Part shown: positions 3,148 to 32,448 of the stretch, piece after piece | Layout: every line of letters starts with the position of its first letter | How positions within the stretch are numbered: position 1 is the first letter of the stretch | From: Candidatus Woesearchaeota archaeon | GTDB lineage: Archaea; Nanobdellota; Nanobdellia; Woesearchaeales; JAADFO01 | Assembly (NCBI GenBank): GCA_016926055.1 | Contig: JAFGPE010000026.1 | Location: 1 to 34,369 of the forward strand | Reading direction: 5' to 3' | DNA length: 34,369 nt | Notes under the pieces: model-generated | Databases searched by the model: none | What the model was told of the DNA's origin: nothing | Seen by the model: the letters and a program-made list of their open reading frames with translations, nothing else | Position numbers and translations under genes: made by a program

Positions 3148-4895
3148 ATCAATCCCTCCCTGACGCCCTGCTCAAGCTCCTTTTCCGCGAGCAAGGTTAT
3201 ATCCTTGACTTCTTTCCTTATTTCCCTGGAGAATTTCATCCTTGCAATCCTCTCCTTGAATTTGAGCTTCTGAAGCGAGGATGTTTTCAGCCCTTTGCCG
3301 AGCTTTTCCTCCTCTAACTTATGGATGCTCATGATTAGTTTCAGCATCAGGTATTGCTTTTCAAGACTGCAGTATGAATCAACATCATCATAGGCGCTCT
3401 GCTGGAGAAAATCCTCCCTTAGCGATTTTGCAGTATCAAGCATTAATTTGTCATCCTCCCCCAAGGCATCAGGACCGATAAGCTGGACAATTTCCTTCAG
3501 CTCAGATTCCTTCTGCAGAAGGACCATTGCCTCCTTTCTAAGCCTTGTAAACTCAGGACTGACCTTTGTGTTGAAGTAGTCTACCGTATTCTCAAGGTAA
3601 AGAGAATAGCTTGTCAGCCAGTTGACAGAAGGGAAGTGTCGTCTGTATGCAAGAGACGCATCAAGTGCCCAGAACGCCTTTGTTATCCTGAGCGTGTTTT
3701 GGGTAACAGGCTCTGAAAAATCCCCTCCGGGCGGGCTGACTGCGCCAACTATTGACACAGCACCCTCCTTGTTTCCCAGTGTTTTCACCCTGCCTGCCCT
3801 CTCATAAAACTGAGCCAGTCTCGATGAAAGATAGGCGGGATATCCCTCCTCTCCAGGCATCTCCTCGAGCCTTGATGATATTTCCCTCATCGCCTCCGCC
3901 CATCTCGAGGTTGAGTCTGCCATCAATGCGACAGAATATCCCATGTCCCTGAAGTATTCTGCAATTGTAACCCCTGTATAGACAGATGCCTCCCTCGCCG
4001 CCACTGGCATGTTCGATGTATTTGCTACTATCACTGTCCTCTCCATAAGGGGCTTTCCTGTCTTCGGGTCAAGAAGGCTTGGAAACTCATTAAGGACCTC
4101 TGTCATCTCATTGCCCCTTTCCCCACAACCAACATAAACAATGATGTCTGCATCGGACCATTTTGCAAGATTTTGCTGGGCCACGGTTTTTCCTGCGCCA
4201 AAAGGACCGGGGATTGCCGCTGTACCTCCTTTTGCTATCGGAAAAAAAGTGTCGAAAACCCTTTGTCCGGTAACAAGCGGGACTGAGGGGGGAAGCCTTG
4301 TTCTTATCGGCCTTGGCCTTCTGACAGCCCATTTCTGGTGCATCCTTATTCTTTCTTCTCCGTTTCTTGTTTTTACAACTGCAATGGTTTCCTCAACTGT
4401 AAAATTCCCTCTGTTTATCTTGATTATCTTTCCTGAAATAGTGCCTGGGACAACTATTCTGTGCTCTATGATTCCTGTCTCCTTCACTGTGCCGATGATG
4501 TCGCCCGCCTTTACTTTGTCCCCTTTTTTTACAGCAGGATTAAACTTAAATTTTCTTCTCTTATCCAAACCCGGAACATCTATGCCTTTTGAAATAAAAC
4601 TGCCTGACTTTTTTGCTATTGCCTCCAGTGGTCTTCCAACCCCATCATATATGTTGTTAAGAAGCCCTGGACCAAGGTCTATCTGCAACGGCGCTCCTGT
4701 TGAAACAACTATTTCTCCTGGCTGTAAGCCGTTTGTATCCTCATAAACCTGGATTATTGCATTGTCTTCCCTTAGTTGGATTATCTCGCCTATCAGCTTC
4801 TCAGTTCCCGCCCTTACAAGCTCAAACATCTTTGCACCTTTCATCCCTCTTGCCTCGATAACTGGTCCGCTGATTCTCGAAATTATGCCCATCAT
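3144..4895 (-). CDS. atpA: A-type ATP synthase subunit A (catalytic)
   Basis: 583 aa. Walker [10 protein letters not shown], plus [17 protein letters not shown] and [12 protein letters not shown] blocks typical of A/V-type catalytic subunits. Confidence 0.97.
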
Positions 4896-5179: not shown

Positions 5180-6261
5180 GTTACCATCTCCATTATCTCC
5201 GCACGGCCCATCTTTGCATGGATTCCCTTGCTGATTGAAAGAAGATTATGAAACTCGTTTTCTTTCTTTGCAAGGTAAACAAACAAAGGATACGGGCCAA
5301 TTGAATGGCTGAGCTCTCTTTCTTGAACAAAGTTCTTGTAAAGCTTTCTTAGCTCTTTTTCAAAATGGTACAAGGATTTGTCTTTTTCGTATCCTGCAAG
5401 GGCTTTCATCAGGGAATCTTCAAATAATGTTCCCTTGCATAGCTTAGCAATATCCTCAATCTTGCCAGCTTTTATCAGCTCAGAATGAAGTTTTGAAAGC
5501 CCTGAATCATTAATTATAAGAAGATTGCTTCTTTTTTCGGCAGGAACTTTTCTTGATACTGCCTTCATAAGTGCCATGATGTTCATCACATCTATCTTTG
5601 TATTTATCATCTCGCAAATCAATTTTGAGTCGTGCATTCTTGTGCTTTTTGTTTCCTCAAGCAGGTTCTCGAAAGCGAATCTGTCAATCTCAGACTCAAA
5701 TTCTTCAAGGCTTTTGTATTCCTTTTTCATTATGCCTGAATAAACTGTCTTTGAAAAAAGCCCTCTTAGTCTTTTAATGTCTGTTGCCTGATTCATCCTG
5801 TCAAGCAAATCTGTTGTTATGCTGCCGACAGGAAATAGAATCCACTCATTTGCATCAGCTCCTGAAAACCTTGACCTATAGACGGCTTTTATCATCTTCA
5901 CCTCCCAGAGCATCAGATAGGCATCAAGAATCCTGCTGACTCTTTTTGGTGAAATCTCCTTCAAGTCGACAATGGATTCTACAAAGCTCTTTTCTATTAA
6001 AGAGTGGAACCCTTTCAAATCCGTTTTAATATTCTCCTCGCCGAGGTAATCGCTGGCCTCCAGATGGCTTATTAGTTCGTGGACTGTTCTTGACTCAGAA
6101 AGCTCGCTTAACTTTTTCTTCCCGATGATGTTCCTGCTTCTTGACTGTATTATTGCATTAGAGTAGAAGAAAGGCATCACGGGGTTTACATGTCTGAACA
6201 CAAAAAAGAACACGGTTGCTACCAGAAATGCTGAAAATGCGACTATCAATATGGGTTCCAT
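5176..6261 (-). CDS. atpC: A-type ATP synthase subunit C (V-type d homologue) with an unusual hydrophobic N-terminal extension
   Basis: 361 aa, helical, at the operon position between atpE and atpF. The region from YSNAIIQSRSRN onward matches the usual subunit C start. The first ~25 residues (EPILIVAFSAFLVATVFFFVF) look transmembrane. ATG at 6259-6261 is only 3 nt from the atpE stop. Confidence 0.85.
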   Translation of the reverse strand: MEPILIVAFSAFLVATVFFFVFRHVNPVMPFFYSNAIIQSRSRNIIGKKKLSELSESRTVHELISHLEASDYLGEENIKTDLKGFHSLIEKSFVESIVDLKEISPKRVSRILDAYLMLWEVKMIKAVYRSRFSGADANEWILFPVGSITTDLLDRMNQATDIKRLRGLFSKTVYSGIMKKEYKSLEEFESEIDRFAFENLLEETKSTRMHDSKLICEMINTKIDVMNIMALMKAVSRKVPAEKRSNLLIINDSGLSKLHSELIKAGKIEDIAKLCKGTLFEDSLMKALAGYEKDKSLYHFEKELRKLYKNFVQERELSHSIGPYPLFVYLAKKENEFHNLLSISKGIHAKMGRAEIMEMVT

Positions 6262-9520: not shown

Positions 9521-9620
9521 GCTCACCCCTCATGCTTGGTTAAAAAGTGTGTTTTTAAATCTTTCTCGAAATCACATTAATATCATCATTACAACAGTTT
9601 AAGTAAAGAACAAGTCGTTG

Positions 9621-10757
9621 TCAACCAGGCTGAATTTTTGAGAATTTATGCACCTTTTTAAACCCCTCATATAGCTTTCTGAGATGCTCATTTACCTGTT
9701 CAATGATGCCTCTTCCACGGGCGGAATTCAGTTTTATCGCTTGGTTAAAAGAATCAAGGTATATGCTCTTCGCCTGGGAGAATATTGTTTCCGAGATTAT
9801 ATGAACCCCTCCATATGGGTCCCTTGAACCTCTGGTCCTGTTGACGCCTTTTGGTACAATTGAGCCCCTTAAGCTCAATATAAGGTCTCTTGGCTCGTCG
9901 TATTCGAAAATATACATGTGAGGGCCCGGAAGAACCTCAAGATAACGCACATCGAGATTTGGTTCTTTGATTTGCTTTTCAAGGTTTTCTATGACTTGTT
10001 TGCATTCAAGGTATGCTCTTTTGCCGTCATTGTTGAATATTTTCAACGCTCTTCTGAATGTCAGGTCAATATTCAAATCAGTTATGTAGTGAATTTTTAA
10101 TTTCTTTAATGTAAAACAATTATTTCTCTGATTTAAAACAAATTTCTCTCTGTTCATTCCTTCAAATAATGAATCAGTATATGTTATGTTTGGAAAGGGC
10201 GAATCCGCATAGTATGCATTTGCCTTGTTCAGAAGAGCAGCAATTGTTTCCATGTATAAGTCGGGCTCCAGATAAGTGACTATTGGCTTTGATGGCTTGG
10301 TTATGATTTTTTTGAATTTTTTTTCCAGGTCTTTTGAGAAATCGGAAAGATTCTTCATTTCATCATTTAAGCTGTTCTTCCTGCTGTCAAGAATTGATTT
10401 TATCTTGTTCTTGTTTATGCCGTATGTCGCCTTTTCCTTCTTTTCCACTGCACCCACTTTAAGCAAAGGCTTCAGTTGACTGAAAAGATTCTGCCGCTGA
10501 ATCTTTTTATTGAAGCGGTTCTCATATTCTGAGACGATATTTGAAGCCCTGACAGGAATTTTGTTTAATTCAAGTTCATAAACTGTCAAAAGAAGGTCAA
10601 GCTGCTGCTTTGTCAGACCAAGCCACTCTGGTTTAATGTCCATGAAATAACTGTAAATGGAACAATTATAAATTTCTTTGCAATCCTTCTGTTGTTCTTT
10701 TGAGCTCTCTTTCAAACGTTGCATAGTCTCCGAGATGTCTTTGCCTTTGAATTTCAT
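9621..10757 (-). CDS. hypothetical protein with an N-terminal winged-helix (MarR/TrmB-like) region and an uncharacterised C-terminal domain
   Basis: The segment LGLTKQQLDLLLTVYELELNKIPVRASNIVSEY...LKPLLKVGAVEKKE looks like a wHTH, followed by a coiled segment. The start is uncertain: 10757 overlaps the upstream radical SAM gene by 92 nt. In-frame ATGs at 10724 and 10643 are alternatives; 10643 removes the overlap. Confidence 0.55.
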   Translation of the reverse strand: MKFKGKDISETMQRLKESSKEQQKDCKEIYNCSIYSYFMDIKPEWLGLTKQQLDLLLTVYELELNKIPVRASNIVSEYENRFNKKIQRQNLFSQLKPLLKVGAVEKKEKATYGINKNKIKSILDSRKNSLNDEMKNLSDFSKDLEKKFKKIITKPSKPIVTYLEPDLYMETIAALLNKANAYYADSPFPNITYTDSLFEGMNREKFVLNQRNNCFTLKKLKIHYITDLNIDLTFRRALKIFNNDGKRAYLECKQVIENLEKQIKEPNLDVRYLEVLPGPHMYIFEYDEPRDLILSLRGSIVPKGVNRTRGSRDPYGGVHIISETIFSQAKSIYLDSFNQAIKLNSARGRGIIEQVNEHLRKLYEGFKKVHKFSKIQPG

Positions 10758-11694
10758 ATGCAGGACAGCCTACAATTATTCCATTTCTCTTTCGCTGTTT
10801 TCTGGCAGCAATGATTTCAGGAGAGTTCCATAAATCCAGGAAGGAATTATCTTTTATATTCCCGAATCTTGCTCCATCGTCGCAGAACAGGCAATATTCC
10901 GCTATTCCAACTGAGTTGATGGATGCATTGTTTCGTTCTCCGCAGCTCTCATTATCTTCAATGAAAGCATTGTAACCTTGTGGAATGGTGTAAAAGCAAG
11001 GCTGACTCAGTTCTAATCGGGTTGCATTGCCCTTGCTTACAAGCAATGCATCATGTTGTGCTTTGGCTAGCTGCTCTCCTGAAGGAAGCATATTAAGACA
11101 ATTTTGTATTGCGCTACCACTCGGAAACAAAGTTCTCAGCTTGAACTGCTGAACACCCATCCTTGAAACCAATAAATATGTTTTGACTGCATCATCAAGA
11201 TTTTCATCATACAAAGTGTATCTTATGGAAACAGGAAGCCCTGCTTTCAATGCGTTTGTTATTCCTTGCATAGTGTCGTTCCAGGCAGTTTCGGACTTAG
11301 AACGCATGTTCTGAAAACAAGGAGCTGATGAGTCAAGGCCAATTTGTACTGAATTCACACCTAAGTTCTTAAGTTCTTCTGCAAATTGTTTTGAGTCTAT
11401 GAAGTCGCCATTAGTGCAAAGCCTGACATCTGCAGGTTTTGCATACTCTATTAACCTGCATGTTTTTTCCCTTAACTGGGGATGCAATGGTTCTCCGCCC
11501 GTTATGGATGCTGATTCGAGTGTTCCTTGTTCTTTTGTTTCAGAAATTGCCATGAAGAAATCATCAAGGGTTGCAGGTTTGCCTATCCTTTCTTTATCGC
11601 TGTCTTTTGAACAACCAAGGCAACTACGATTACATGATTCGCCGACATTAATTCTCAGTTCCTTTGGGCTTACGATAATTCCCATAATTAACAC
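10666..11694 (-). CDS. radical SAM enzyme with a Cys-rich SPASM/twitch-like C-terminal region
   Basis: CX3CX2C motif (ESCNRSCLGCS) near the N-terminus, then GGEPL, then C-terminal cysteines (C..x..CGERN...EYCLFCDDG...GCPAY). The start is GTG at 11694 or ATG at 11685. Confidence 0.85.
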   Translation of the reverse strand: MLIMGIIVSPKELRINVGESCNRSCLGCSKDSDKERIGKPATLDDFFMAISETKEQGTLESASITGGEPLHPQLREKTCRLIEYAKPADVRLCTNGDFIDSKQFAEELKNLGVNSVQIGLDSSAPCFQNMRSKSETAWNDTMQGITNALKAGLPVSIRYTLYDENLDDAVKTYLLVSRMGVQQFKLRTLFPSGSAIQNCLNMLPSGEQLAKAQHDALLVSKGNATRLELSQPCFYTIPQGYNAFIEDNESCGERNNASINSVGIAEYCLFCDDGARFGNIKDNSFLDLWNSPEIIAARKQRKRNGIIVGCPAYEIQRQRHLGDYATFERELKRTTEGLQRNL

Positions 11695-11876: not shown

Positions 11877-12881
11877 GTGAATAGTCAGAAAACTGTTGTA
11901 GGCCAGGCCAACATAAAGGTATTGGGTGTTGGGGGTGCAGGAAACAACATGGTAAGCTGGCTTTATAAAAAGGGAATTAAAGGAGCAGAGATAATTGCAG
12001 CAAATTCCGACCAGCAGCATCTTGCCATATCTTCAGCAGACAGGAAGATTCTTATTGGATTTGACAAGTGCCGCGGTTTAGGATGTGGAGGTTTTCCTGA
12101 GAAAGGAAGGAATGCTGCGCTCGACTCAAGAGAAGATATAAGAAAGTCCCTTGAAGGCGCAGACATGGTCTTCATATGTTCAGGCATGGGAGGAGGCACA
12201 GGAACAGGTGCTGCTGGAGTGGTTGCAAAGATTGCAAAGGACATGGGAGCAATTGTCATAGGTAGCGTTACAATGCCATTCAAGATAGAAAGAGCAAGAA
12301 TTGAAAGGGCAGAGTTCGGGCTCGCCGAGTTAAGAGAGCACAGTGACACGGTAATTGTGATTGACAACAACAGGTTAGTCCAGCTTGCTGGAAACCTTCC
12401 TGTCGAGCAGGCTTTTGCTGTAGCAAATGAGCTTGTCTCAACAATGATTCGTGGAATAGTGGAAACTATTGCTGTGCCAAGCCTTGTTAATCTGGATTTT
12501 GCAGATGTAAAGGCGATAATGACTTGCGGAGGTGTTGCTGCTGTCGGCATAGGCATGTCTGACACAGCGAGTAGGGTCGATGAAGCAGTAAGCAAGGCTC
12601 TGTCAAACCCTCTGCTCGACATAAGTTATGAAGGAGCTGTTGGCGCATTGATACACATAGAGGGCGGGCCCGATATGACCCTCCAGGAAGTAGAGCGAAT
12701 AGGCGACTTAGTAACAAAAAGTCTTGATGAGGATGCAAATGTCATCTGGGGAGCAAGAGTAAATGATTCAATGAAAGGAAAGCTCTGTGTGATGACGATA
12801 ATAACAGGGGTTAAAAGTCCTTATTTAATTGGAAAACAGACAGCAAGAGTAACCCAGGAAGAGATGATGAGGGGGTGCTAG
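11877..12881 (+). CDS. ftsZ: cell division GTPase FtsZ
   Basis: Tubulin/FtsZ signatures VLGVGGAGNNMV and GMGGGTGTGAAGVVAKIAKDMGA. The track start is GTG 11868. GTG 11877 lies 5 nt after GAGGTGA (11865-11871) and is preferred. A TTTATATA box sits at 11815-11822. Confidence 0.93.
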   Translation: MNSQKTVVGQANIKVLGVGGAGNNMVSWLYKKGIKGAEIIAANSDQQHLAISSADRKILIGFDKCRGLGCGGFPEKGRNAALDSREDIRKSLEGADMVFICSGMGGGTGTGAAGVVAKIAKDMGAIVIGSVTMPFKIERARIERAEFGLAELREHSDTVIVIDNNRLVQLAGNLPVEQAFAVANELVSTMIRGIVETIAVPSLVNLDFADVKAIMTCGGVAAVGIGMSDTASRVDEAVSKALSNPLLDISYEGAVGALIHIEGGPDMTLQEVERIGDLVTKSLDEDANVIWGARVNDSMKGKLCVMTIITGVKSPYLIGKQTARVTQEEMMRGC

Positions 12882-12912
12882 GAGAGTATTGAGTTAATTA
12901 CGAAATAAGGTT

Positions 12913-13170
12913 CTATATTCTATAAATACAACAACATCTATGCACGTATTTCATAAACTCAGGAGCATTATCCTCCCTCATTGATCTCATAAAAGATTCA
13001 TGTGCCGCTGCCTTTGGAGATTCTTCTAATTTATTTTTTTGGACATCAATTTCTTCCAAACAAAACTTTACAAGGTCAACTAAGGGCCGATTCAATAAGG
13101 GATTTTGTTCTACTGCATAATACTCTGCAAGATAGTGCATCGTGAGTGATAATTGTTCAATTGTTAGCAT
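12913..13170 (-). CDS. hypothetical 85-aa helical protein
   Basis: ATG start with TTTATAAG (13195-13202, minus) about 25 nt upstream, the leaderless-type geometry. No recognisable family. Confidence 0.5.
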   Translation of the reverse strand: MLTIEQLSLTMHYLAEYYAVEQNPLLNRPLVDLVKFCLEEIDVQKNKLEESPKAAAHESFMRSMREDNAPEFMKYVHRCCCIYRI

Positions 13171-13194
13171 AACGTTCTTAGAGGTCTGAAGGAG

Positions 13195-13202
13195 CTTATA
13201 AA
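13195..13202 (-). promoter_or_regulatory. TATA box (TTTATAAG) for the leaderless 85-aa gene
   Basis: 24 nt intervene before the ATG at 13170. The same geometry recurs at several genes in this window. Confidence 0.4.
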
Positions 13203-13213
13203 TCTTTTTTCAA

Positions 13214-13230
13214 TACTCAAACAGACTCTT
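13214..13230. repeat. 17-bp direct repeat copy A (tactcaaacagactctt), an orphan copy of the polB 3' end
   Basis: Identical to 14456-14472. On the minus strand it reads TAA-AAG AGT CTG TTT GAG TAT-TGA, i.e. stop-KSLFEY-stop, the same last six residues as PolB. Confidence 0.9.
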
Positions 13231-13287
13231 TTATTTCTGTATGTGCACAAATCGCCGAAAGATTAAGAAATTATGTGCACGTACACT

Positions 13288-13815
13288 TTAAACCAGCAGC
13301 TTCTTCATCTCTAACATAAACTGCTTTGCTCTTTTTAGCGAAGTCCTTGCTTTCTGCTCCTGTATTGACTCGGTCATGTCATACTGGAATCTTGACCTTT
13401 TATCCATCTCCAGACCATACAGCCCAATAATCTCGTCTGATTTGATTGAAGCAATCTCCAAAGCATCCTCTTTTGCATTTTCATACTCTTCCAGAAGGCC
13501 TTTCTTTATCTTGTCCATGACAAGAACGATTAAAGCATCATTCGTGACTTTATGCACTACTTTATCTCCTGTTTTATAGCCAAGCTCAAGCAGGACAGCA
13601 TTTGCAATATAGAACATTGAATAATAGGATATGACAACCACCCAAATGAATGGCTTCAAACCGCTGCCCATGCATTCTTCAGCCAAGCTTAAAGATAAAT
13701 CTGCATTTTTTATGTACATGGCTTTTGCAGTTTCATTCTTTTCTTTCTTAATCAGCCCATCGGACAGATATTGCGCAAAGTTCTTCTGGGCCTCTTTCTT
13801 CCTCTCTTTATCCAT
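13288..13815 (-). CDS. HEPN domain protein (partner of the upstream nucleotidyltransferase)
   Basis: 175-aa all-helical protein with a HEPN-like layout (AKAMYIKNADLSLSLAEE ... ISYYSMFYIANAVLLELGY ... KRSRFQYD). 8-nt overlap with the NTase gene. Confidence 0.65.
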   Translation of the reverse strand: MDKERKKEAQKNFAQYLSDGLIKKEKNETAKAMYIKNADLSLSLAEECMGSGLKPFIWVVVISYYSMFYIANAVLLELGYKTGDKVVHKVTNDALIVLVMDKIKKGLLEEYENAKEDALEIASIKSDEIIGLYGLEMDKRSRFQYDMTESIQEQKARTSLKRAKQFMLEMKKLLV

Positions 13816-14395
13816 TGTTCATCTCGTAATACGCTTCTATTCCACATAGAATTATGTTATTTTTTAAAGCTTCCTGTCCTACATTTGATTTTTTCGTATC
13901 AATCATCTCCAAAAACTGTTTCTCAGAAAATACTAAATGATGTATTGGCAAGGGCAATAATCCTGCTGCCCTGCGAACATCTTTCTCAAATAGCTCTTCC
14001 CTTCCATCAGGAACAATAAACATTAAATCAATATCTGAATTCCTGGTTTGTGTTTTCTTTGCATAAGAGCCAAAAACCAGCAGCACACAGAGTTTTGATT
14101 TTAATGCTTTTTTGAAATCATTAAGCATTACAGAAAGGTTTTTGTCTTTCAACAATTCTTTTCTCCTGCCATATTCTGCTTCAAAGATAAGCGGATGCAT
14201 TTGTGAAACAAGCTTAACTCTGCTCGATTGCCCAAAGGACTCCAGCCTGACAAGTGATTCCTTTTCAAGCCTCTTGACAATGGAATGTACATTCTTATAA
14301 TCCATCTTCAATTCCTTGGAAATCCTGAGTATGTTGACCTCTTCATTTTTCCTCTCAATGAGATATCTGATAATTACAACATCCTTGCTTCTCAT
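13808..14395 (-). CDS. minimal nucleotidyltransferase (MNT family) with an N-terminal winged-helix domain
   Basis: Pol-beta-type NTase motif LLVFGSYAKKTQTRNSDIDLMFIVPD. The N-terminal ~70 aa are wHTH-like (ISKELKMDYKNVHSIVKRLEKESLV). GGTGA at 14403-14407 lies upstream of the ATG. Confidence 0.85.
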   Translation of the reverse strand: MRSKDVVIIRYLIERKNEEVNILRISKELKMDYKNVHSIVKRLEKESLVRLESFGQSSRVKLVSQMHPLIFEAEYGRRKELLKDKNLSVMLNDFKKALKSKLCVLLVFGSYAKKTQTRNSDIDLMFIVPDGREELFEKDVRRAAGLLPLPIHHLVFSEKQFLEMIDTKKSNVGQEALKNNIILCGIEAYYEMNNG

Positions 14396-14451
14396 GGCAA
14401 TATCACCGTATAATCATGGTATTATTAACATATATTTAAATATTTCCATTA

Positions 14452-16785
14452 TTAGTACTCAAACAGACTCTTCTGTTTATTGACTAAGTCATCAAAGCTC
14501 TTTCCGTAGAAAACCAGAATTGAATCCGCTATCGGCTTCAATTGCTTTTCAATGTAATGCTCGTAATTAATCTTGTGCTTTAACTCCTCGGCCGGCTCAG
14601 GCCCGTCACTGGTCATGTAATACTCAATGATGCTCGAACTAATTTTCTTGAGTTTTCTTGCTGCCTTGACATGAGGCGGAGTTGTCCTTGTGTATTCATC
14701 GACACCTTTCCTCAAGGCCTTCCTATACACAAGCAAATCATCATACTTTCCTTTCTTCAGCTCGTCAAGGAACTGCTTCACATATCCGACAACCTCTTTT
14801 TTCTCAAAGACCCTTGTTAATAACTCGAGCTGGAACTTCTTTGCCAAGTCCGTCCAATCCCTCCTTACAAACTCTAATCCTGTGAAATCCATCTTCTCTT
14901 TGCCATCCTCGACAAGCAAGCCAGCATACCTTTTCTTCGAACCTTCCTCACTCCCGCGCGTTTTCGGCATCAGGAATTTCTTGTAAACCTTGTCAAACTC
15001 TATCTCAAGGTAGCTTTTCCTCCTGTAGTTGTCATGAATGTATTTTTCCATGAATTTATTAATATCTGTCTCTATCTTCCTCCCAATCCTCTCTGCCTCT
15101 TCAGGACTATTAACATCAAGCTTCAAAAAGAGACTGTCAGTATCAGAATAAATTACCTCATATCCTTTCTCTTCAATATACTTTGCAGATAATTTAATAA
15201 TAAATTGCCCTGTGTGGGTTATTGCATTGCTCATTTCCATTGAAAAGAACCTGCAATTGGGGCTCGCAAGTACTCCAAAGAACGAATTCATCAGTATCTT
15301 TATAGCGTTGCTTGCAAGCGCATTCTTCTCCTTCTTCGCAGCATCACGTTGCTTCCAGAAGGATTGAATTATTGACGGCAACAATCCTTCTTCGTTCTTA
15401 AATATCGCGCCATTCGGCGTCTCAACATATTTCTCAGGAGTTTTGTTCTTCGCAGATAACTTGTCCCGCACAAAGCTCAACGGGTCGATATTGAAAGTCC
15501 TGATAATGCTCGGATACAGGCTCTTGAAATCCAGCACAACAACATAATCATATATCCCTGGCTTTGACTTCATCACAAAGCCGCCCGTTATAGGCTCTTC
15601 CTTCTCTGCGAAGGCAAGGGACATTGCAACATATCCTTTCTTTCTTAAGTGCCTGAGATAAAGCGAGTCAAACGATGCAATTGATGCCCTTACCCTTTCA
15701 AGGGGCATCCCTGTGAGCATTGACCTCAGGATAGAAAGCTTCACTACCCCTGTCTTCTCAAGAACCTTGTAGACAAGCTCAGAATCCTTTAAGTTATAGT
15801 CGACAAGCTTTTGAGGATTATTCTTATAATAATCCTCTATTGTCTCTGCCTTGGATACCTCTCCGATTAGTTTCTTCTCTCCAAGAAACTCAGAGGCTGC
15901 TGTTCCAAGCTTATAATCCTCAAGCTTTACAAAAGATGCTTTTAAAAGAAATATTCCATCGAGAGTTGCCCTTCCCGGAATATTCGCAGAGGAATCCCTA
16001 AAAAAATCTGTATTTATTCTAAGCCTATTCTCCCAGTCAATCCTTCCTAATCTGAACTCAATCTTGTGCTCCCTGAACTTGTTCCTTATGAAATCAAGGT
16101 CGAAATCAATCACGCTCCATCCGGTTATTATATCTGGGTCAAGCTGAATTACTGTCCTCTTGAATGCATCAAGCATTGACTTCTCATCATCAAAAGAAAC
16201 TGCATTTTCAAGCTCCTTGTTCGATACGATAAGCACTTTCTTGTAATCCCTGCAGTATATTGAGATGCTGAAAATACTTTTTCCCTGGCTGTCTGTCTCT
16301 ATGTCCATCGACAGCACTTTCAATTCAGGAAAGAACTCTGATCGAATTAGCTCAGGCTCCTCGTAAATCCTATCAACAAATATTCCTTCCTCAGGCAATG
16401 GCTTTTTGTGATTGCCGTTTATCTCAACAGCACCAAGAATGCTCTTGTCCATAAGAAAGCGCTGCGCAAACCTTATGTCTGCTTCATAACATTTTATTCC
16501 CTTCTCCTCAAAGCTCTTTCTCAGGAAGGGAACATCCTTTGGAATTGAAAGAATTATCTTTTCAACAGCCTCTTCGTCAAAATCCTTTAGCTCTGTGTGC
16601 TGGTGCTTAAACTCAGGCTCCTTAACCTCTTCAGCCCTTTTCAAATCCTCTCGCCTTATGAAGAAATAAGGCTTGAATGAATTTATCGTAAGAAACGATT
16701 CTCCGTTCTCAAGCCTTCCGAACAAATAAACTCTTGCAGAACCATTCTCAATCCTGTAAGTTGGATAAACTATAAAGCCCTTCAT
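14452..16785 (-). CDS. polB: family B DNA polymerase
   Basis: Exo motifs DIETD, GWSVIDFDLDFI and YNLKDSELVY. Pol motifs DFKSLYPSII, KILMNSFFGVL and YSDTDSLF. The track start at 16854 is TTG. ATG at 16783-16785 (MKGFIVYPTY...) has TATAAAAA centred about 25 nt upstream. Confidence 0.95.
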   Translation of the reverse strand: MKGFIVYPTYRIENGSARVYLFGRLENGESFLTINSFKPYFFIRREDLKRAEEVKEPEFKHQHTELKDFDEEAVEKIILSIPKDVPFLRKSFEEKGIKCYEADIRFAQRFLMDKSILGAVEINGNHKKPLPEEGIFVDRIYEEPELIRSEFFPELKVLSMDIETDSQGKSIFSISIYCRDYKKVLIVSNKELENAVSFDDEKSMLDAFKRTVIQLDPDIITGWSVIDFDLDFIRNKFREHKIEFRLGRIDWENRLRINTDFFRDSSANIPGRATLDGIFLLKASFVKLEDYKLGTAASEFLGEKKLIGEVSKAETIEDYYKNNPQKLVDYNLKDSELVYKVLEKTGVVKLSILRSMLTGMPLERVRASIASFDSLYLRHLRKKGYVAMSLAFAEKEEPITGGFVMKSKPGIYDYVVVLDFKSLYPSIIRTFNIDPLSFVRDKLSAKNKTPEKYVETPNGAIFKNEEGLLPSIIQSFWKQRDAAKKEKNALASNAIKILMNSFFGVLASPNCRFFSMEMSNAITHTGQFIIKLSAKYIEEKGYEVIYSDTDSLFLKLDVNSPEEAERIGRKIETDINKFMEKYIHDNYRRKSYLEIEFDKVYKKFLMPKTRGSEEGSKKRYAGLLVEDGKEKMDFTGLEFVRRDWTDLAKKFQLELLTRVFEKKEVVGYVKQFLDELKKGKYDDLLVYRKALRKGVDEYTRTTPPHVKAARKLKKISSSIIEYYMTSDGPEPAEELKHKINYEHYIEKQLKPIADSILVFYGKSFDDLVNKQKSLFEY
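14456..14472. repeat. 17-bp direct repeat copy B (tactcaaacagactctt) inside the last codons of polB
   Basis: Identical to 13214-13230. Encodes KSLFE plus the first two bases of the Tyr codon of PolB (...QKSLFEY-TAA). Confidence 0.9.
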
Positions 16786-16805
16786 AAGCCAAAATGAATG
16801 TTTTC

Positions 16806-16813
16806 TTTTTATA
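16806..16813 (-). promoter_or_regulatory. TATA box (TATAAAAA) upstream of polB
   Basis: Minus-strand CCATATAAAAAG. 20 nt intervene before the ATG at 16785, consistent with a leaderless or near-leaderless transcript. Confidence 0.4.
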
Positions 16814-16864
16814 TGGTTTTTGATTCCTTGTAGATAAATAGTTGTTTCAGCCAAAAATAATTTA

Positions 16865-19761: not shown

Positions 19762-19861
19762 AAAATCACCTGAACAGGGATAGTTGTCTTGATTTTTATA
19801 TCTTTTCTAGCCGAAAGGATAAATATGAAATTCGTACTAACTACGATTAATCTTCGAAAGA

Positions 19862-19873
19862 TTTAAAATATAA
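19862..19873 (+). promoter_or_regulatory. TATA-like element (TTTAAAATATAA) for the leaderless PEPCK-like gene
   Basis: Centred about 25 nt upstream of the ATG at 19892. No SD lies between. Confidence 0.4.
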
Positions 19874-21943: not shown

Positions 21944-22052
21944 AGTATCACCTTTTGTTGTTAACAATCTGAATATTTATAAATTTTACCTCGGCTCATC
22001 AACGAAATATTTGACTCAAAATAACTATTTGTAAGTAGTTAAAATAGAAAGA

Positions 22053-22060
22053 TTTATAAA
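22053..22060 (+). promoter_or_regulatory. TATA box (TTTATAAA) for the leaderless orphan gene
   Basis: 22 nt intervene before the ATG at 22083. Confidence 0.4.
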
Positions 22061-25302: not shown

Positions 25303-28300
25303 CTAAGTCAGCAAATCCTTTATCAACTGTATAAATCTCAGCATGAAAATCTTCACGCTGTCAAATGCTGACGCGAGCGAGTTTGTGAGCTTGTCGAAGA
25401 AATTAGCTCTTGACTCAGGAAGCTCAAGGTAAGCATCCTTCTGGGAGATTATGTATTTGCACCCTTCGAGAGCATCATCGATAAGCTGCTGCGCTTTGCT
25501 GAACTGATTAGTCTGCAACGCTTTCTTTGCCTCGGTAAGAATCTCATTCAGTTCAAGGCATTCTGGATTCTCCCTGAACAAATCCTCTGTGAAAGTTATC
25601 TTTGTATTTATCTGGGAGACGTTCTCAAGACCTTTCTCGAGACTGTTGATGAATATCTTTGCTGTATCTGCAAACTCTGGCTGCTCGGCCTCTGCTTTCA
25701 CTGTTATTTCCTGCAGGCCATAGATGTTGTTGCCGGCATTTATGTAAAGAACAGTTTCAAATTCCTCACCGGGTTCGAGCTTCGCTAGGGGGTTGTTCTT
25801 GAATGAATAGTTCATTGAAAGATTCGTCAGGATGCTGAGGTTTATTTTGTTGAGGTCAGCCTCATAGTTGTTTACCAGCCTTATTGGTATTTCCATTGTT
25901 TCGTTCTTGTAGAGAGTGACTATTCCTGGCGAGATGAGTTCAATTGTCACCCTCTTTGTCAGATTCGTCTGGTTTATCACCTTTGTTTCCATTATTGTGA
26001 CCACTGAACTTCCTCCGCCTCCGCCTGAAGAAGCAGCAGTCTCTGTATGGGCCGGCGATGCCTGAAATAGTATTGTGACGTTGTTCGAGTAGGTTGTGTT
26101 ATAGCCGTCGTAAGCTGAAAAAGTCAAGGTGACTGTATTAGGGTTCTCTGAATACAATGTAACTACATTTGTTTCATTGTTTATTGTGACAGATATATCC
26201 ACACTTGTAGAGTAGTTATATGTAAGATTGTCTCCTGTGTCAAGGTCGTAGAAGAAGTTATCAAGATCTACCCACAACAGATAGCTATCTTCAATATACG
26301 ATAAGTTTCCTATCGTATAATGAACCTTGACATTAGAAATATCTGGTGTTGTCGTGCTATTGTTTGTCTCAAGGATCATCTTGTACTGGAGATACCTGTG
26401 AGGCGTTACATTAGGGACAAAGCTCTGTCCAGAATGGTTTGCACCCCATGCACCCAGCCCTGCCTGCGAAGCTGCCGTCCTTAACTGGAAAAGCACAGTG
26501 GTATTTGAACCGGTCGTATTTGTTCCTGACCATTCTATCAGCGATACATTTAAGTAGTTCTCCCCCTGGAAGTCAATTACAGGCGATAAATATGTTCCGC
26601 TAGTTATATATGCGCTGCCGTTTCTCGATAAAACTATCCTCCCATCAAGCGTAAGGTTTGTTGAATTGAATGTTCCGCTAATGAAATCAGAGTATGATTT
26701 GTGCTCCCTGAGGCCAAATATTATTGGCCTGTTAAGATTCAAAACAGTAACATTCCATGTTAACGAGGAATTAGTGGTGCCGTCACTTGCTATGGCCGTT
26801 ATATTATGGGTGCCTGCTGAAGAAAAATCAGGTGAGTACGTGTAGTTGTATGTGGTTCCGTTAACAGTGCCGTCTACAAGCCAATAGTAGCTCAATGTGT
26901 CAGAATCAGTAGCGGATATATTCATTCCCTGCGTGGAATTCTCATAAATTGAAAAGCTAAGGGATGTTGGATAATATCCTGTAATATTCGGCGGATTATT
27001 TATTGAAGTTATAAAAAAGACTATTGTTGTTGTGTTTACATTTGTCCCATCTGTAACGTTTATTATGATTGTGTGGTTGCCGCGGTCAGCCAAACTCGGA
27101 GTGAAATTGACCATTACAGATGAATAGTTCACGACTGTGAAGTTGAACAGGGAGGAGTTTGTTCCAAATGACAAGGTATCATTCTCCTCATCATATGCTG
27201 AAACATATTTTGTAAACAAGGTTCCATCATAGGCTGTCCAGTTTGTCAGCGGCGGCGTGAAATATGGCGGGTCATTCCTGAACCTGATTGAAAGATTAAA
27301 CTCTGCTGTGTCGAAGCCGTTTATGTAACCGTCGGATACGTTAACAGTTATTGTATAGTTTCCTACAAGAGTGTAGTCGGGAGTAAAGTTTATTCTTGCA
27401 GCAGTTGAATTGACAGATGTCAAGGTGAACAATGTTGAATTTGTATCATATGTCAGATTGTCGCCATCAGAGTCGAATGAGTTTATTGTAAGTACGAATG
27501 CGGAATCCTCTGTAACGCTCTGGTTCGATATGCTGTCCATTACAGGTGGCGAGTTTATTATCACAAAGAAGTTTATGACCTCTGAATCGTTTGCAATACC
27601 GTCTGACACAGTTATATTTATAGAGTAGTTCCCAAACTGACTATCTGTCGGCGTGAAGTTTATCATGCCTGTTGCCGAATCAACATATGTTATGTTGAAG
27701 AGTGTTGAGTTTGAGCTGAAGTTTAACGGGTCGTCATCCGCATCTGTGGCAGTTATAAGAAGCGTGAACGTATTGTTTATTCTTGCAGTCCTTTCACCTA
27801 TGCTCGTGAGAACAGGAGGGTTGTTTATGTCAAGTATGGTGAAGTAGATTATTGTGGTATTCGGAGCTCCCTTCTCATCTGTGGCAGTTATCGTGACAGT
27901 ATGATTTCCAACATCCGCATTGTCGGGAGTAAATTGTATTCTTCCTGCAGTTGCATTAAGCGCTGCTATATCGAACATGGCCGTATCATCCGAAAAGTTT
28001 ATGCTGTGGTTCTGCAGGTCGAATGCGGTTACATCTACGGAGAACGCTGAATTCTCATAGATGGTCTGGTTTTCCACAGGATATATCGAAGGAGGATTAT
28101 TGTTGGTTATTTCAATATTCATCAGGACGCTGGCATTAAGTGTACCGTCGCCAACAGTTATGTTTATTGTGTGATTGCCTGCGCTTCCTCCTGAAAGTGA
28201 GAAGGATATCAGGCCTGAAGCAGATATGTTGAATAACGATGTATTGTCATAATAATAGAGACTGTCGTATGTATCTACATCTGTTGCATTAACCTGATAT

Positions 28301-29355
28301 GAGAAAGGCGCATACTCATATGCCGTCTGGTCTGGAATCTGCTGGATGACAGGAACATCATTAACTGGCGTGACATTCAGTGTTATGTTGTTGCCTAGTG
28401 TCCTGTTGTAGCCATCAAATATCTCAAAGTAGATTACCTCTGCTCCTGTAAAGTTACCTGTTGGTATAAAGCTGACATTGTGCGTCGATTCGTTTATCAC
28501 TATCCTTATGGATGAGTTTCCATACGCTGCGTAGGTGATTGAGTCATTATTCTGGCCTGTGCATTCCATGTTGTCCAGGTCATAGAAATACTCGTCAAGG
28601 TCCAGTATGTTAACCAAGTTAGTGTCCTCGGGCCATGTCTGATTCTCAAATGTTTTGTTGTGGACAGGTATTCTGTTCGAGTTCAATACTGATACATTCC
28701 AGACCACATAATCTGATGCATTATATAAGTCACTTACAACAAGCGTTATGTTATGATAGCCTGCTTCACAATAGCTTGCCACAAACAACCACGTAGTGTT
28801 TATTGATATGTTGACTGAGTTCTTGTAATAGACGTTGCTAAGGTTGTCTATATTTGGATGGACAAGGTCATCATCAGAAGCATTATAGTCAAATGTAAAA
28901 CCTATTGTGTCGTTTTCATACATCGCAGGAGTCAGATTTGAAGGCGCATACTGCGTTATGTTCGGCGCATCGTTTGTATTGGTTATATTGAATGTGACAA
29001 ACCTTGTTGCTCCCTCTATCGGTGTCCCTGCATCTTTCACAATTATCGTTATCGTATAGGACACAGCAGAATCATTATTTACGGCTGTAAAGTTTATCAG
29101 GGCAGAGGTATCATTGTAGTTATGCATATAGAAGACAGGCAATATTGATTCGGAATCGTCTGAAAAGTTAAGGGGATATTCCCCATCGGAATCTGTTGCC
29201 TCGACATAATACGTGAACAACTGGTCTTCGTATAGCGTAAAATTGTTCGGAAGATCGGTGAAAACAGGGTCTGCAGACTGAACAAAGCTTGCCGATAGAG
29301 CTGCAGATATCAGAACCAATGCCAGGAAATAAAATCTGCCGTCTCTAAGCTGCAT
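25303..29355 (-). CDS. giant secreted surface protein: signal peptide, ~9-10 cadherin-like repeats, Gly5 hinge, CARDB-like and helical C-terminal module
   Basis: Start ATG at 29353-29355 (MQLRDGRFYFLALVLISAALSASFVQS) lies 6 nt after GGAGG and overlaps the upstream gene by 11 nt. Recurrent inter-domain linkers are NDAP/NDVP/NNPP/NSPP/NDPP. About 94 N-x-S/T sequons by manual count. No TM anchor seen. Confidence 0.85.
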   Translation of the reverse strand: MQLRDGRFYFLALVLISAALSASFVQSADPVFTDLPNNFTLYEDQLFTYYVEATDSDGEYPLNFSDDSESILPVFYMHNYNDTSALINFTAVNNDSAVSYTITIIVKDAGTPIEGATRFVTFNITNTNDAPNITQYAPSNLTPAMYENDTIGFTFDYNASDDDLVHPNIDNLSNVYYKNSVNISINTTWLFVASYCEAGYHNITLVVSDLYNASDYVVWNVSVLNSNRIPVHNKTFENQTWPEDTNLVNILDLDEYFYDLDNMECTGQNNDSITYAAYGNSSIRIVINESTHNVSFIPTGNFTGAEVIYFEIFDGYNRTLGNNITLNVTPVNDVPVIQQIPDQTAYEYAPFSYQVNATDVDTYDSLYYYDNTSLFNISASGLISFSLSGGSAGNHTINITVGDGTLNASVLMNIEITNNNPPSIYPVENQTIYENSAFSVDVTAFDLQNHSINFSDDTAMFDIAALNATAGRIQFTPDNADVGNHTVTITATDEKGAPNTTIIYFTILDINNPPVLTSIGERTARINNTFTLLITATDADDDPLNFSSNSTLFNITYVDSATGMINFTPTDSQFGNYSINITVSDGIANDSEVINFFVIINSPPVMDSISNQSVTEDSAFVLTINSFDSDGDNLTYDTNSTLFTLTSVNSTAARINFTPDYTLVGNYTITVNVSDGYINGFDTAEFNLSIRFRNDPPYFTPPLTNWTAYDGTLFTKYVSAYDEENDTLSFGTNSSLFNFTVVNYSSVMVNFTPSLADRGNHTIIINVTDGTNVNTTTIVFFITSINNPPNITGYYPTSLSFSIYENSTQGMNISATDSDTLSYYWLVDGTVNGTTYNYTYSPDFSSAGTHNITAIASDGTTNSSLTWNVTVLNLNRPIIFGLREHKSYSDFISGTFNSTNLTLDGRIVLSRNGSAYITSGTYLSPVIDFQGENYLNVSLIEWSGTNTTGSNTTVLFQLRTAASQAGLGAWGANHSGQSFVPNVTPHRYLQYKMILETNNSTTTPDISNVKVHYTIGNLSYIEDSYLLWVDLDNFFYDLDTGDNLTYNYSTSVDISVTINNETNVVTLYSENPNTVTLTFSAYDGYNTTYSNNVTILFQASPAHTETAASSGGGGGSSVVTIMETKVINQTNLTKRVTIELISPGIVTLYKNETMEIPIRLVNNYEADLNKINLSILTNLSMNYSFKNNPLAKLEPGEEFETVLYINAGNNIYGLQEITVKAEAEQPEFADTAKIFINSLEKGLENVSQINTKITFTEDLFRENPECLELNEILTEAKKALQTNQFSKAQQLIDDALEGCKYIISQKDAYLELPESRANFFDKLTNSLASAFDSVKIFMLRFIQLIKDLLT

Positions 29356-32413: not shown

Positions 32414-32425
32414 TATTATATAAAT
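32414..32425 (-). promoter_or_regulatory. TATA-like element for the 167-aa / 849-aa / 1350-aa transcription unit
   Basis: Minus-strand ATTTATATAATA, centred about 26 nt upstream of the ATG at 32394, in the only sizeable intergenic gap (32395-32448) of the locus. Confidence 0.4.
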
Positions 32426-32448
32426 CTTTTGTTGTTGATAGTAAACAA

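Follow-up and report, generated by a model that had tools for sequence, protein, structure and literature searches.

Here we report that, in a 34,369-base stretch of DNA from a DPANN (Woesearchaeota-like) archaeon, which was analysed at its full length and is called the window below, a self-contained pair of genes lies at the 3′ end of polB, the family B DNA polymerase gene, between two exact copies of a 17-mer, TACTCAAACAGACTCTT, that belongs to the coding sequence for the end of PolB. The pair, referred to here as the cassette, encodes a winged helix–turn–helix (wHTH) protein with a minimal nucleotidyltransferase (MNT) domain and a HEPN-like protein. The observation is real and the locus is probably an insertion scar, for which we infer the following mechanism: a horizontally acquired cassette carrying a polB-end-like sequence would have recombined once with the chromosomal polB end. 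Our confidence in this account is about even.

Exact searches place the 17-mer at 13214–13230 (copy A) and 14456–14472 (copy B), at a spacing of 1242 bp, and nowhere else in the window; with up to two mismatches allowed, there is still no third copy in the window (0 in 100 shuffles). The same coordinates and spacing had been given in an earlier annotation made from the letters alone, which we call the sequence-only reading. All genes of the polB and cassette region are on the minus strand, and the features that matter here are the following:

14452–16854, minus strand: family B DNA polymerase gene (polB); longest open reading frame (ORF) 800 aa, Pfam DNA_pol_B 7.5e-51, exo domain 1.1e-20
14452–16785, minus strand: database PolB protein P0001, which starts at Met24 and has 777 aa; C-terminus ...NKQKSLFEY-TAA
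14456–14472, minus strand: copy B of the exact 17-mer, K-S-L-F-E-Y (first two bases), the working PolB C-terminus; homology to copy A spans 14452–14478
14396–14451, minus strand: cassette expression signals, with TATA box, imperfect palindrome and Shine–Dalgarno sequence; kept in all cassette copies
13808–14395, minus strand: wHTH and MNT gene, 195 aa; PF01909 3.8e-8, PF18765, HTH_24
13288–13815, minus strand: HEPN-like gene, 175 aa, overlapping the MNT stop by 8 nt; PF05168 22.8 bits (cutoff 22)
13231–13287, minus strand: spacer of 57 nt, unique to the locus, with two TATGTGCAC repeats and a hairpin at about 13238–13285
13210–13236, minus strand: copy A, an orphan relic of the PolB C-terminus, with the exact 17-mer (13214–13230) inside 27 nt of polB-end homology
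13196–13207, minus strand: host-type promoter element AAAGATTTATAA, 25 nt upstream of the ATG of the 85-aa ORF
12913–13170, minus strand: ORF of 85 aa without homologues; no Pfam family

On the minus strand, copy B reads ...LVNKQKSLFEY-TAA and is the end of PolB. Copy A, 1242 bp further along that strand, reads HIQK-stop-KSLFEY-TGA in the register of copy B. In-register translation thus bears out the sequence-only reading, which had assigned copy B to the PolB end and copy A to an orphan KSLFEY-TGA behind a stop, and the ORFs and their Pfam matches agree with its description of the interval as holding only the wHTH–nucleotidyltransferase and HEPN genes plus two direct repeats. The 17-mer observation itself is confirmed, and the facts stated in the sequence-only reading are all correct. 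An independent Logan contig of 1862 nt covers 12725–14586 with 0 differences, at a depth of 7.3 that equals the flank depth, and the 17-nt repeat is shorter than the 31-nt words of the assembler behind that contig. Because the contig is identical at equal depth and the repeat is shorter than the assembler words, an assembly artefact is excluded; among the contigs of that run, there are no alternative joins or loose ends at either junction.

The duplicated sequence is not an arbitrary part of polB. A C-terminal Q-x-[ST]-L-x-x-[FY] pattern is present in 117 of 120 PolB relatives, 92 of which stop exactly at the aromatic residue, and a typical ending is ...SSQKTLFGY. The pattern is that of a putative PCNA-interacting (PIP-box) tail of archaeal PolB. 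Its presence in nearly all relatives identifies the duplicated sequence as a functionally constrained C-terminus.

The resemblance between the two copies extends past the exact core. They are homologous over 27 nt, with 23 of 27 positions identical and four differences, all of them transitions, and the similarity fades further out. On one side AAACAG faces AAATAA and on the other TAC-TAA faces TAT-TGA, so that both copies keep a Tyr–stop through different codons. The extended flank alignment scores z = 7.5 against shuffled flanks and, by our own count, four differences scattered at random over 27 positions would all land in the outer 10 with a probability of about 0.012. A plain target duplication is disfavoured because it predicts unrelated sequence outside the repeat, and mutational decay of a longer duplication is disfavoured because the central 17 nt would not have been spared exactly. 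To judge from the alignment, the pattern suggests two diverged homologous sites that recombined within an identical core, as in attP × attB. The att-like insertion proposed in the sequence-only reading is thereby favoured over plain target duplication, on the strength of the 27-nt homology, the four transitions and the preserved Tyr–stop, but no targeting system is demonstrated.

Codon usage points in the same direction. Host-gene stops in the window are TGA (13), TAG (6) and TAA (4), and the preferred Tyr codon is TAT. Copy A ends in the host-preferred TAT-TGA, the working polB end is TAC-TAA, and both cassette genes stop in TAA. This evidence is small and would be consistent with copy A being the original host end.

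Taken step by step, recombination between two polB-end sequences would have proceeded as follows. A cassette consisting of its own promoter, the wHTH–MNT gene, the HEPN-like gene and the 57-nt hairpin tail would have integrated at the extreme 3′ end of polB, through a single reciprocal crossover in which the chromosomal polB end exchanged with an approximately 27-nt polB-end-like sequence on incoming, probably circular, DNA. With the exchange point inside the 17 nt identical in both sequences, two hybrid sites would result. Copy B would be host polB up to ...GAGTA followed by a cassette-borne C-TAA, and the PCNA-binding-type tail of PolB would stay intact; in copy A, an ...AAATAA brought in by the cassette would stand before the host's original ...GAGTA-T-TGA, with the host promoter of the next ORF behind it. 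Either a site-specific recombinase acting in trans would have carried out the exchange, or host homologous recombination would have used the short homology. Afterwards, the cassette would probably regulate itself, its wHTH domain being predicted to bind the palindromic promoter element.

Removal of the interval in silico gives a sequence that fits this history. Cutting out the interval with one repeat copy (1242 bp) yields ...GAG TAT TGA with the promoter 4 nt later, and the expected empty-site junction is ...CAGAAGAGTCTGTTTGAGTATTGAAAAAAGATTTATAAG. The proposal in the sequence-only reading that removal restores a compact junction of polB stop and promoter is therefore upheld, with TAT-TGA directly before a host-type promoter. 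That promoter follows a recurrent design: AAAGATTTATAA (≤1 mismatch) with a start codon 23–26 nt on precedes at least 5 window genes, with sites at 13196–13207, 19857–19868, 22048–22059, 32418–32429 and 9553–9564. The recurrence suggests that transcripts in the host genome are mostly leaderless. The 85-aa ORF has an exact AAAGATTTATAA at the 25-nt spacing. It has no relatives in 5.8 billion proteins, and a full HMMER scan of 1.84 billion representatives returned one weak, repetitive match only; it is probably a lineage-specific leaderless gene, and is a prediction only. Of the ‘next gene’ with a TATA box that the sequence-only reading placed past copy A, the promoter stands as an exact host motif, whereas the gene is plausible but unproven, having no homologues.

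A different origin of the repeat would be a target-site duplication, in which a transposase-like process or end joining put a cassette without polB-like sequence into a 17-nt staggered break, which was then filled in. We regard this as rather unlikely. It accounts for a perfect direct repeat exactly at both ends of the insert, mobilisation in trans would fit the lack of an encoded recombinase, and, on short, repeat-like contigs, a DDE transposase fragment is found 276 nt from the closest MNT relative. However, the insert ends, 13231–13250 and 14436–14455, contain no terminal inverted repeats when read directly against each other. Known transposases make shorter duplications as a rule, and 17 nt is long for them. 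Other copies of the cassette lack such duplications. Finally, similarity outside the 17-mer, with transitions only and a Tyr–stop in both copies, is not predicted by fill-in, save through selection on the PolB tail.

Several lines of evidence support the cassette being a horizontally spreading unit. First, MNT homologues number more than 100 in DPANN archaea (Woesearchaeota and Nanoarchaeota) at 72–85% protein identity, and PolB is at most 61% identical to its relatives, save one 81% relative; the searches returned roughly 500 MNT homologues and roughly 3,800 DPANN PolB homologues in all. Second, a unit that begins about 52 nt before the MNT start codon and runs to the HEPN stop has 79–82% DNA identity in at least 7 unrelated DPANN contexts:

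L008: after an ABC-2 permease
L016/17: after a metallophosphatase
L018: between unknown genes
L019: after an aldehyde dehydrogenase
L020–22: in front of an Rpp14–proteasome–exosome operon
L023–25: between an AAA-protein neighbour and TYW3
L031–37: 276 nt after a DDE transposase fragment

Many cassette-bearing contigs are only 1–2 kb long, the usual assembly outcome of repeated DNA. Third, at conserved residues, the identity of fourfold-degenerate third positions is 0.45–0.65 for the cassette genes (unsaturated), with a composition expectation of about 0.26, against 0.20–0.39 (saturated) for polB and its 49–62% identical relatives L001, L006 and L007; the higher value for the cassette means that the common ancestor of the cassette copies is younger than that of the host genes. 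Comparison of these sequences indicates that the cassette spreads horizontally. The GC content of the interval is 36.7%, and the host-gene mean is 42.2% (s.d. 3.4%). The self-contained cassette of the sequence-only reading, and its suggestion to look for the cassette elsewhere, are both answered by the approximately 80% DNA identity across at least 7 unrelated contexts and by synonymous sites younger than those of polB.

The MNT nearest to that of the window (85%) is the one 276 nt downstream of a DDE_Tnp_1_6 transposase fragment (L031:157–870, also L032–L037), and all eight contigs are ≤1.6 kb.

The boundaries of the cassette coincide with the repeat. By blastn, homology to other cassettes starts at 14446–14452, which is 3–9 nt from the inner edge of copy B with the polB stop codon included, and it stops at the HEPN stop. 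Within the shared unit, alignments of 7–8 independent loci define a TATA box at 14430–14440 and an imperfect palindrome at 14416–14431, with the family consensus TATGGTA-ATAA-TACCATA; from its form, the palindrome could be a putative operator. A putative Shine–Dalgarno sequence, GGTGAT, lies at 14402–14407, 6 nt before the ATG, in all aligned copies. The adjacent MNT and HEPN genes, with their 8-nt overlap and own promoter, form a predicted co-transcribed pair, and the TATA box, palindrome and Shine–Dalgarno sequence are kept in 8 loci. The cassette and its host differ in promoter style, the former being leadered with a Shine–Dalgarno sequence and the latter using AAAGATTTATAA-N25-ATG.

Other loci show how the cassette can be flanked further upstream. 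In L018, the MNT–HEPN cassette and the next small two-gene module (91 aa and 47 aa) both open with a common leader of approximately 85 nt, about 80% identical and beginning AGGGGCACACTCAC; with the two leaders at 3905–3988 and 5195–5277, the arrangement resembles tandem cassettes. A leader start of the AGGGGCACACTCAC type is found at about −93 from the MNT ATG in L023/L025 and L031, and a variant of it in L016/L017; the cassette in the window, cut at about −57, has none. A conserved segment that contains the hairpin TTTTCCCA...TGGGAAAA is also common to L031:640–720 and L018:3845–3900.

Downstream of the HEPN gene, the 57-nt spacer has a character of its own. Its repeat TATGTGCAC, at 13240–13248 and 13272–13280, also pairs as an inverted repeat (TGTA.GTGCAC / GTGCAC.TACA), and the plus-strand single-stranded DNA fold reaches −10 kcal/mol (z −3.1, with 0 of 200 shuffles as good). 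As an RNA hairpin or terminator the spacer was rejected, the coding-strand RNA fold being not significant. It has no homology to the flanks of other loci and no Rfam match, and the attC cores RYYYAAC and GTTRRRY are absent from 13205–13300 by a pattern check, which is not a dedicated attC model. Homology of the GTGCAC spacer to the GGGGCACA-bounded unit of L018/L031 was likewise dismissed, the alignment being unconvincing and the resemblance architectural only. The spacer has three candidate roles: terminator, recombination site or leftover. The hexamer GTGCAC occurs in the 34 kb only at 13243 and 13275, both in the spacer, with about 4–5 occurrences expected from base composition; this scarcity may reflect avoidance of a restriction site.

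The hairpin invites comparison with integrons: the cassette would be an integron-type gene cassette with the spacer as its attC-like site, inserted by an integron integrase from another part of the genome. Integrons and attC arrays exist in Nanoarchaeota and other DPANN archaea, with toxin–antitoxin (TA) modules as the commonest annotated cargo (PMC9668308), and the spacer has a significant single-stranded DNA hairpin of attC-like size, at the 3′ end of the cassette, that folds better on one strand; L018 also has two tandem small modules with a common boundary motif. Yet the cores just described and any Rfam match are missing, the 34-kb window contains neither an integrase nor a cassette array, the units between cassettes in L018 and L031 form no fold, and integron recombination makes no 17-nt duplications. 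An integron origin thus seems to us extremely improbable.

We now turn to the points that weigh against an acquired cassette having recombined with the polB end, and to the two further explanations on which they bear. The first is chance. An exact direct repeat of at least 17 nt is present in 8% of 300 windows simulated with a first-order Markov model, and unrelated exact 16-mers also occur in the real window, so that the repeat alone is weak evidence. The sequence-only reading had put the expected number of chance pairs well below one, which holds, with a smaller margin than implied. Chance is implausible because of where the repeat lies, bracketing a mobile cassette and repeating the last codons of a gene in frame. 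The same figures would serve an explanation in which the cassette had long stood beside polB and the 17-mer pair arose by chance or as a regulatory site upstream of two promoters. The distances from the copies to the TATA boxes downstream of them are indeed similar, at 11 and 15 nt, most other cassette contexts are without flanking repeats, and a conserved DPANN MNT–HEPN gene has been described as ‘typically in house-keeping context’ (PMC6393860). Against this, the pair brackets exactly the spreading unit and repeats the last six codons in frame to Tyr–stop, for which we roughly estimate a joint probability of placement orders of magnitude below 0.08, and neither the other promoters of the window nor any other cassette locus contains the 17-mer. 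We consider a repeat unrelated to insertion very unlikely.

Second, the homology beyond the 17-mer rests on 10 flanking positions picked after viewing the data, and its statistical weight is modest.

Third, no empty site, excised circle or polymorphism was found in the one run available, at about 7× and with contigs that drop rare variants. The host genome is present in one public run only (X1), whose contigs have a single form at both junctions, with no 1242-bp skip, and a metatranscriptome of the same study has no reads at the locus. Scans of genome and metagenome collections with PolB returned relatives of ≤48% identity only. A protein search added one close relative, P0002 from the MAG GCA_017973895.1, at 81% (L005), on a frameshifted contig that ends about 65 codons before the polB stop; all other PolB relatives are ≤61% identical and have unrelated downstream genes. 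The 85-aa ORF, being without homologues, was of no use as a synteny anchor. The empty polB sites and the excised or uninserted variants that the sequence-only reading had proposed to look for were therefore not found, the former among these relatives and the latter in the contigs of run X1.

Fourth, no recombinase is encoded anywhere in the 34-kb window, as the sequence-only reading had noted, and no viral contig carrying the cassette was found. One explanation would be that the insert is what is left of a larger virus, plasmid or integrative element that had its own integrase, entered at the polB 3′ end with formation of attL and attR, and was later trimmed by deletions to a hard-to-lose TA-like module. 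Duplication of an att site at a gene 3′ end is typical of such elements, as in e14 at icd (PMC13626634), TA modules are common cargo of theirs, and the 57-nt hairpin spacer, without counterpart in other loci, could be leftover element DNA. But the interval contains no integrase fragment, and with the left edge 3–9 nt from copy B and only 57 nt from the HEPN stop to copy A, near-exact trimming on both sides would be needed. We hold such a remnant to be distinctly unlikely.

Fifth, the arrangement does not recur. No other cassette locus has TACTCAAACAGACTCTT or a relic of the PolB tail. Flanking repeats as a general trait of the cassette were rejected, five of six other contexts having none; the two of seven contexts that have them are the window (z 7.5) and L018 (z 22), and the L018 repeat is the 85-nt leader common to two adjacent small modules, which is different in kind. 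Duplication of the polB end as a recurrent trait failed in the same way (0 of 6 other polB loci, with a match in L007 that is within the null range). The locus is a single instance, and no polB-targeting att system is demonstrated.

Finally, the inference of horizontal transfer assumes that the other cassette hosts are no closer to this organism than the sampled PolB relatives are, and the other cassette contigs share no housekeeping gene with the window, so that their hosts are not placeable.

Recombination of an acquired cassette with the polB end has known parallels. In Escherichia coli, icd runs into prophage e14, and a C-terminal fragment pseudogene, icdC, lies at the far end of the prophage (PMC13626634). 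As with e14 (and phage 21) at icd or with elements that target tRNA genes, the insert described here supplies equivalent end codons and leaves the target gene intact; as with e14 at icd (PMC13626634), an orphan C-terminal fragment remains at the far end (icdC there, KSLFEY-TGA here) and the copies differ outside the core. Elements of the e14 type are at least 15 kb long and have their own integrase, whereas this insert, with its two genes, measures 1.24 kb and encodes no recombinase. It lies in a DPANN archaeon, at the gene of a replicative polymerase, and duplicates 17–27 nt where those elements duplicate tens to hundreds. In scale and in the missing recombinase, the cassette is closer to integron cassettes and Acinetobacter dif modules (PMC6449649, PMC13141974, PMC9668308), which are likewise small modules, often TA pairs, that travel from site to site by means of a recombinase encoded elsewhere. 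In logic, e14 at icd is the closest known parallel; integron cassettes and dif modules are the closest in scale and lack of a recombinase. The dif modules have 28-bp XerC/XerD sites in inverted orientation and integron cassettes have attC hairpins with R''/R' cores; neither kind of site was recognised here, although no pattern search aimed at Xer sites was made. Dyad symmetry is lacking in the 17-mer, and what flanks the insert is the polB end in direct copies.

The 3′ flank of polB differs between relatives in other ways as well. The gene after polB is different in seven of the seven polB loci examined, one of which has a ParE-type TA pair, and this flank may be a variable spot. In that locus (L006:8316–8806), whose PolB is 61% identical to that of the window, polB faces a convergent ParE-toxin gene with its 77-aa partner; the ParE and polB stops overlap, and FtsZ lies about 4 kb downstream of polB, the same as in the window. 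The gene of the closest PolB relative (81%; L005:611–3939) has an intein (Pfam Intein_splicing) that the PolB of the window does not, and its frameshift falls about 65 codons short of the expected end.

The two cassette proteins resemble, in part, a known class of TA systems. The MNT has the catalytic motif GSx10DxD (GSYAKKTQTRNSDID, at residue 109), which is conserved in 6 homologues. It matches PADLOC PDC-M05A at 4.8e-12, its best solved relative is MntA (PDB 5YEP, E = 0.006), and the NCBIfam MntA model falls below cutoff. The Pfam assignment of the HEPN-like protein is marginal, at 22.8 bits against a cutoff of 22. The RNase motif Rx4-6H is absent in all five HEPN homologues scanned, which have an invariant RSRFQY instead; in a weak match, RSRFQY aligns to RNRSDY of the HEPN-domain protein PDB 9xbd. 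A PDB profile search with the five homologues gave no improvement over the single sequence, and a single-sequence AF2 model has a pLDDT of 46.7, too low to confirm the fold. Across distant DPANN lineages, the HEPN-like protein is about 80–91% identical.

In common with the HEPN–MNT TA modules (Shewanella HepT/MntA, type VII), the cassette has adjacent, overlapping, co-oriented genes, an MNT with GSx10DxD and a Pfam HEPN partner. It differs from HepT/MntA in the N-terminal wHTH of its MNT and in having RSRFQY rather than Rx4-6H in its HEPN, whose unusual conservation is also unlike the patchy, fast-evolving pattern typical of TA systems. The label ‘TA-like’ of the sequence-only reading thus survives for the nucleotidyltransferase motif and the adjacent, overlapping pair, but not for the HEPN, which lacks Rx4-6H in all homologues. 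Once inserted, the cassette may behave as an addiction or defence module, with toxicity unproven.

Makarova et al. (2019) described a DPANN-specific, unusually conserved MNT–HEPN gene (cluster cls.004259, NEQ050), the housekeeping context of which is quoted above, and suspected for it a role beyond classical TA (PMC6393860). Like cls.004259 (PMC6393860), the cassette combines MNT and HEPN domains, is widely conserved in DPANN archaea and has housekeeping neighbours (polB, the Rpp14–proteasome–exosome operon and TYW3); unlike it, and compared by description only, the cassette has two genes in place of a fused protein. Cassette-like relocation and flanking repeats do not feature in that paper (PMC6393860).

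Outside the cassette, the window is core chromosome, with an A-type ATP synthase operon, a radical SAM enzyme, FtsZ, PolB, a glycosyltransferase, thioredoxin reductase, RNase P p30 and ThiI. Three further features stand apart from the polB locus. An ORF of 849 aa (29345–31894) contains a 72-nt tandem repeat (30109–30252; 74% identical, with a 28-nt exact core) and, at 30409–30451, a CCGCC-rich run with a 12-nt period. The adjoining ORF of 1384 aa has internal repeats at 27353–27957, and both are probably repetitive surface proteins. The radical SAM/SPASM gene (10666–11694) overlaps by about 90 nt with a 378-aa ORF (9621–10757) of no Pfam family.

The locus raises a wider idea, one that we put forward as speculation and to which we give little credence: a DPANN family of recombinase-less MNT/HEPN minicassettes of about 1.2 kb that would move as circles and insert at or into the ends of housekeeping genes through carried mimics of gene ends, some of them standing in tandem behind a shared boundary motif of the GGGGCACACTCAC type. 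Such a family would be a counterpart of integron cassettes and dif modules, and the polB case would be the first with both junctions intact.

What the locus means depends on how the cassette arrived. If it entered by one-off illegitimate recombination, it would be a tidy but ordinary case of TA-module mobility. If recombination with a carried polB end is correct, the locus would be a clean scar, open to dating, left by a two-gene module that went into an essential replication gene at its last codons without disrupting it, and its junctions, hairpin spacer and boundary motifs would offer a handle on how defence or TA-like modules move in lineages without known mobile-element machinery. The cassette is among the most conserved and yet most relocated gene pairs of these small genomes, and its history bears on why the MNT/HEPN pair is widely kept among housekeeping genes, a question raised for the conserved DPANN MNT–HEPN gene described earlier (PMC6393860).

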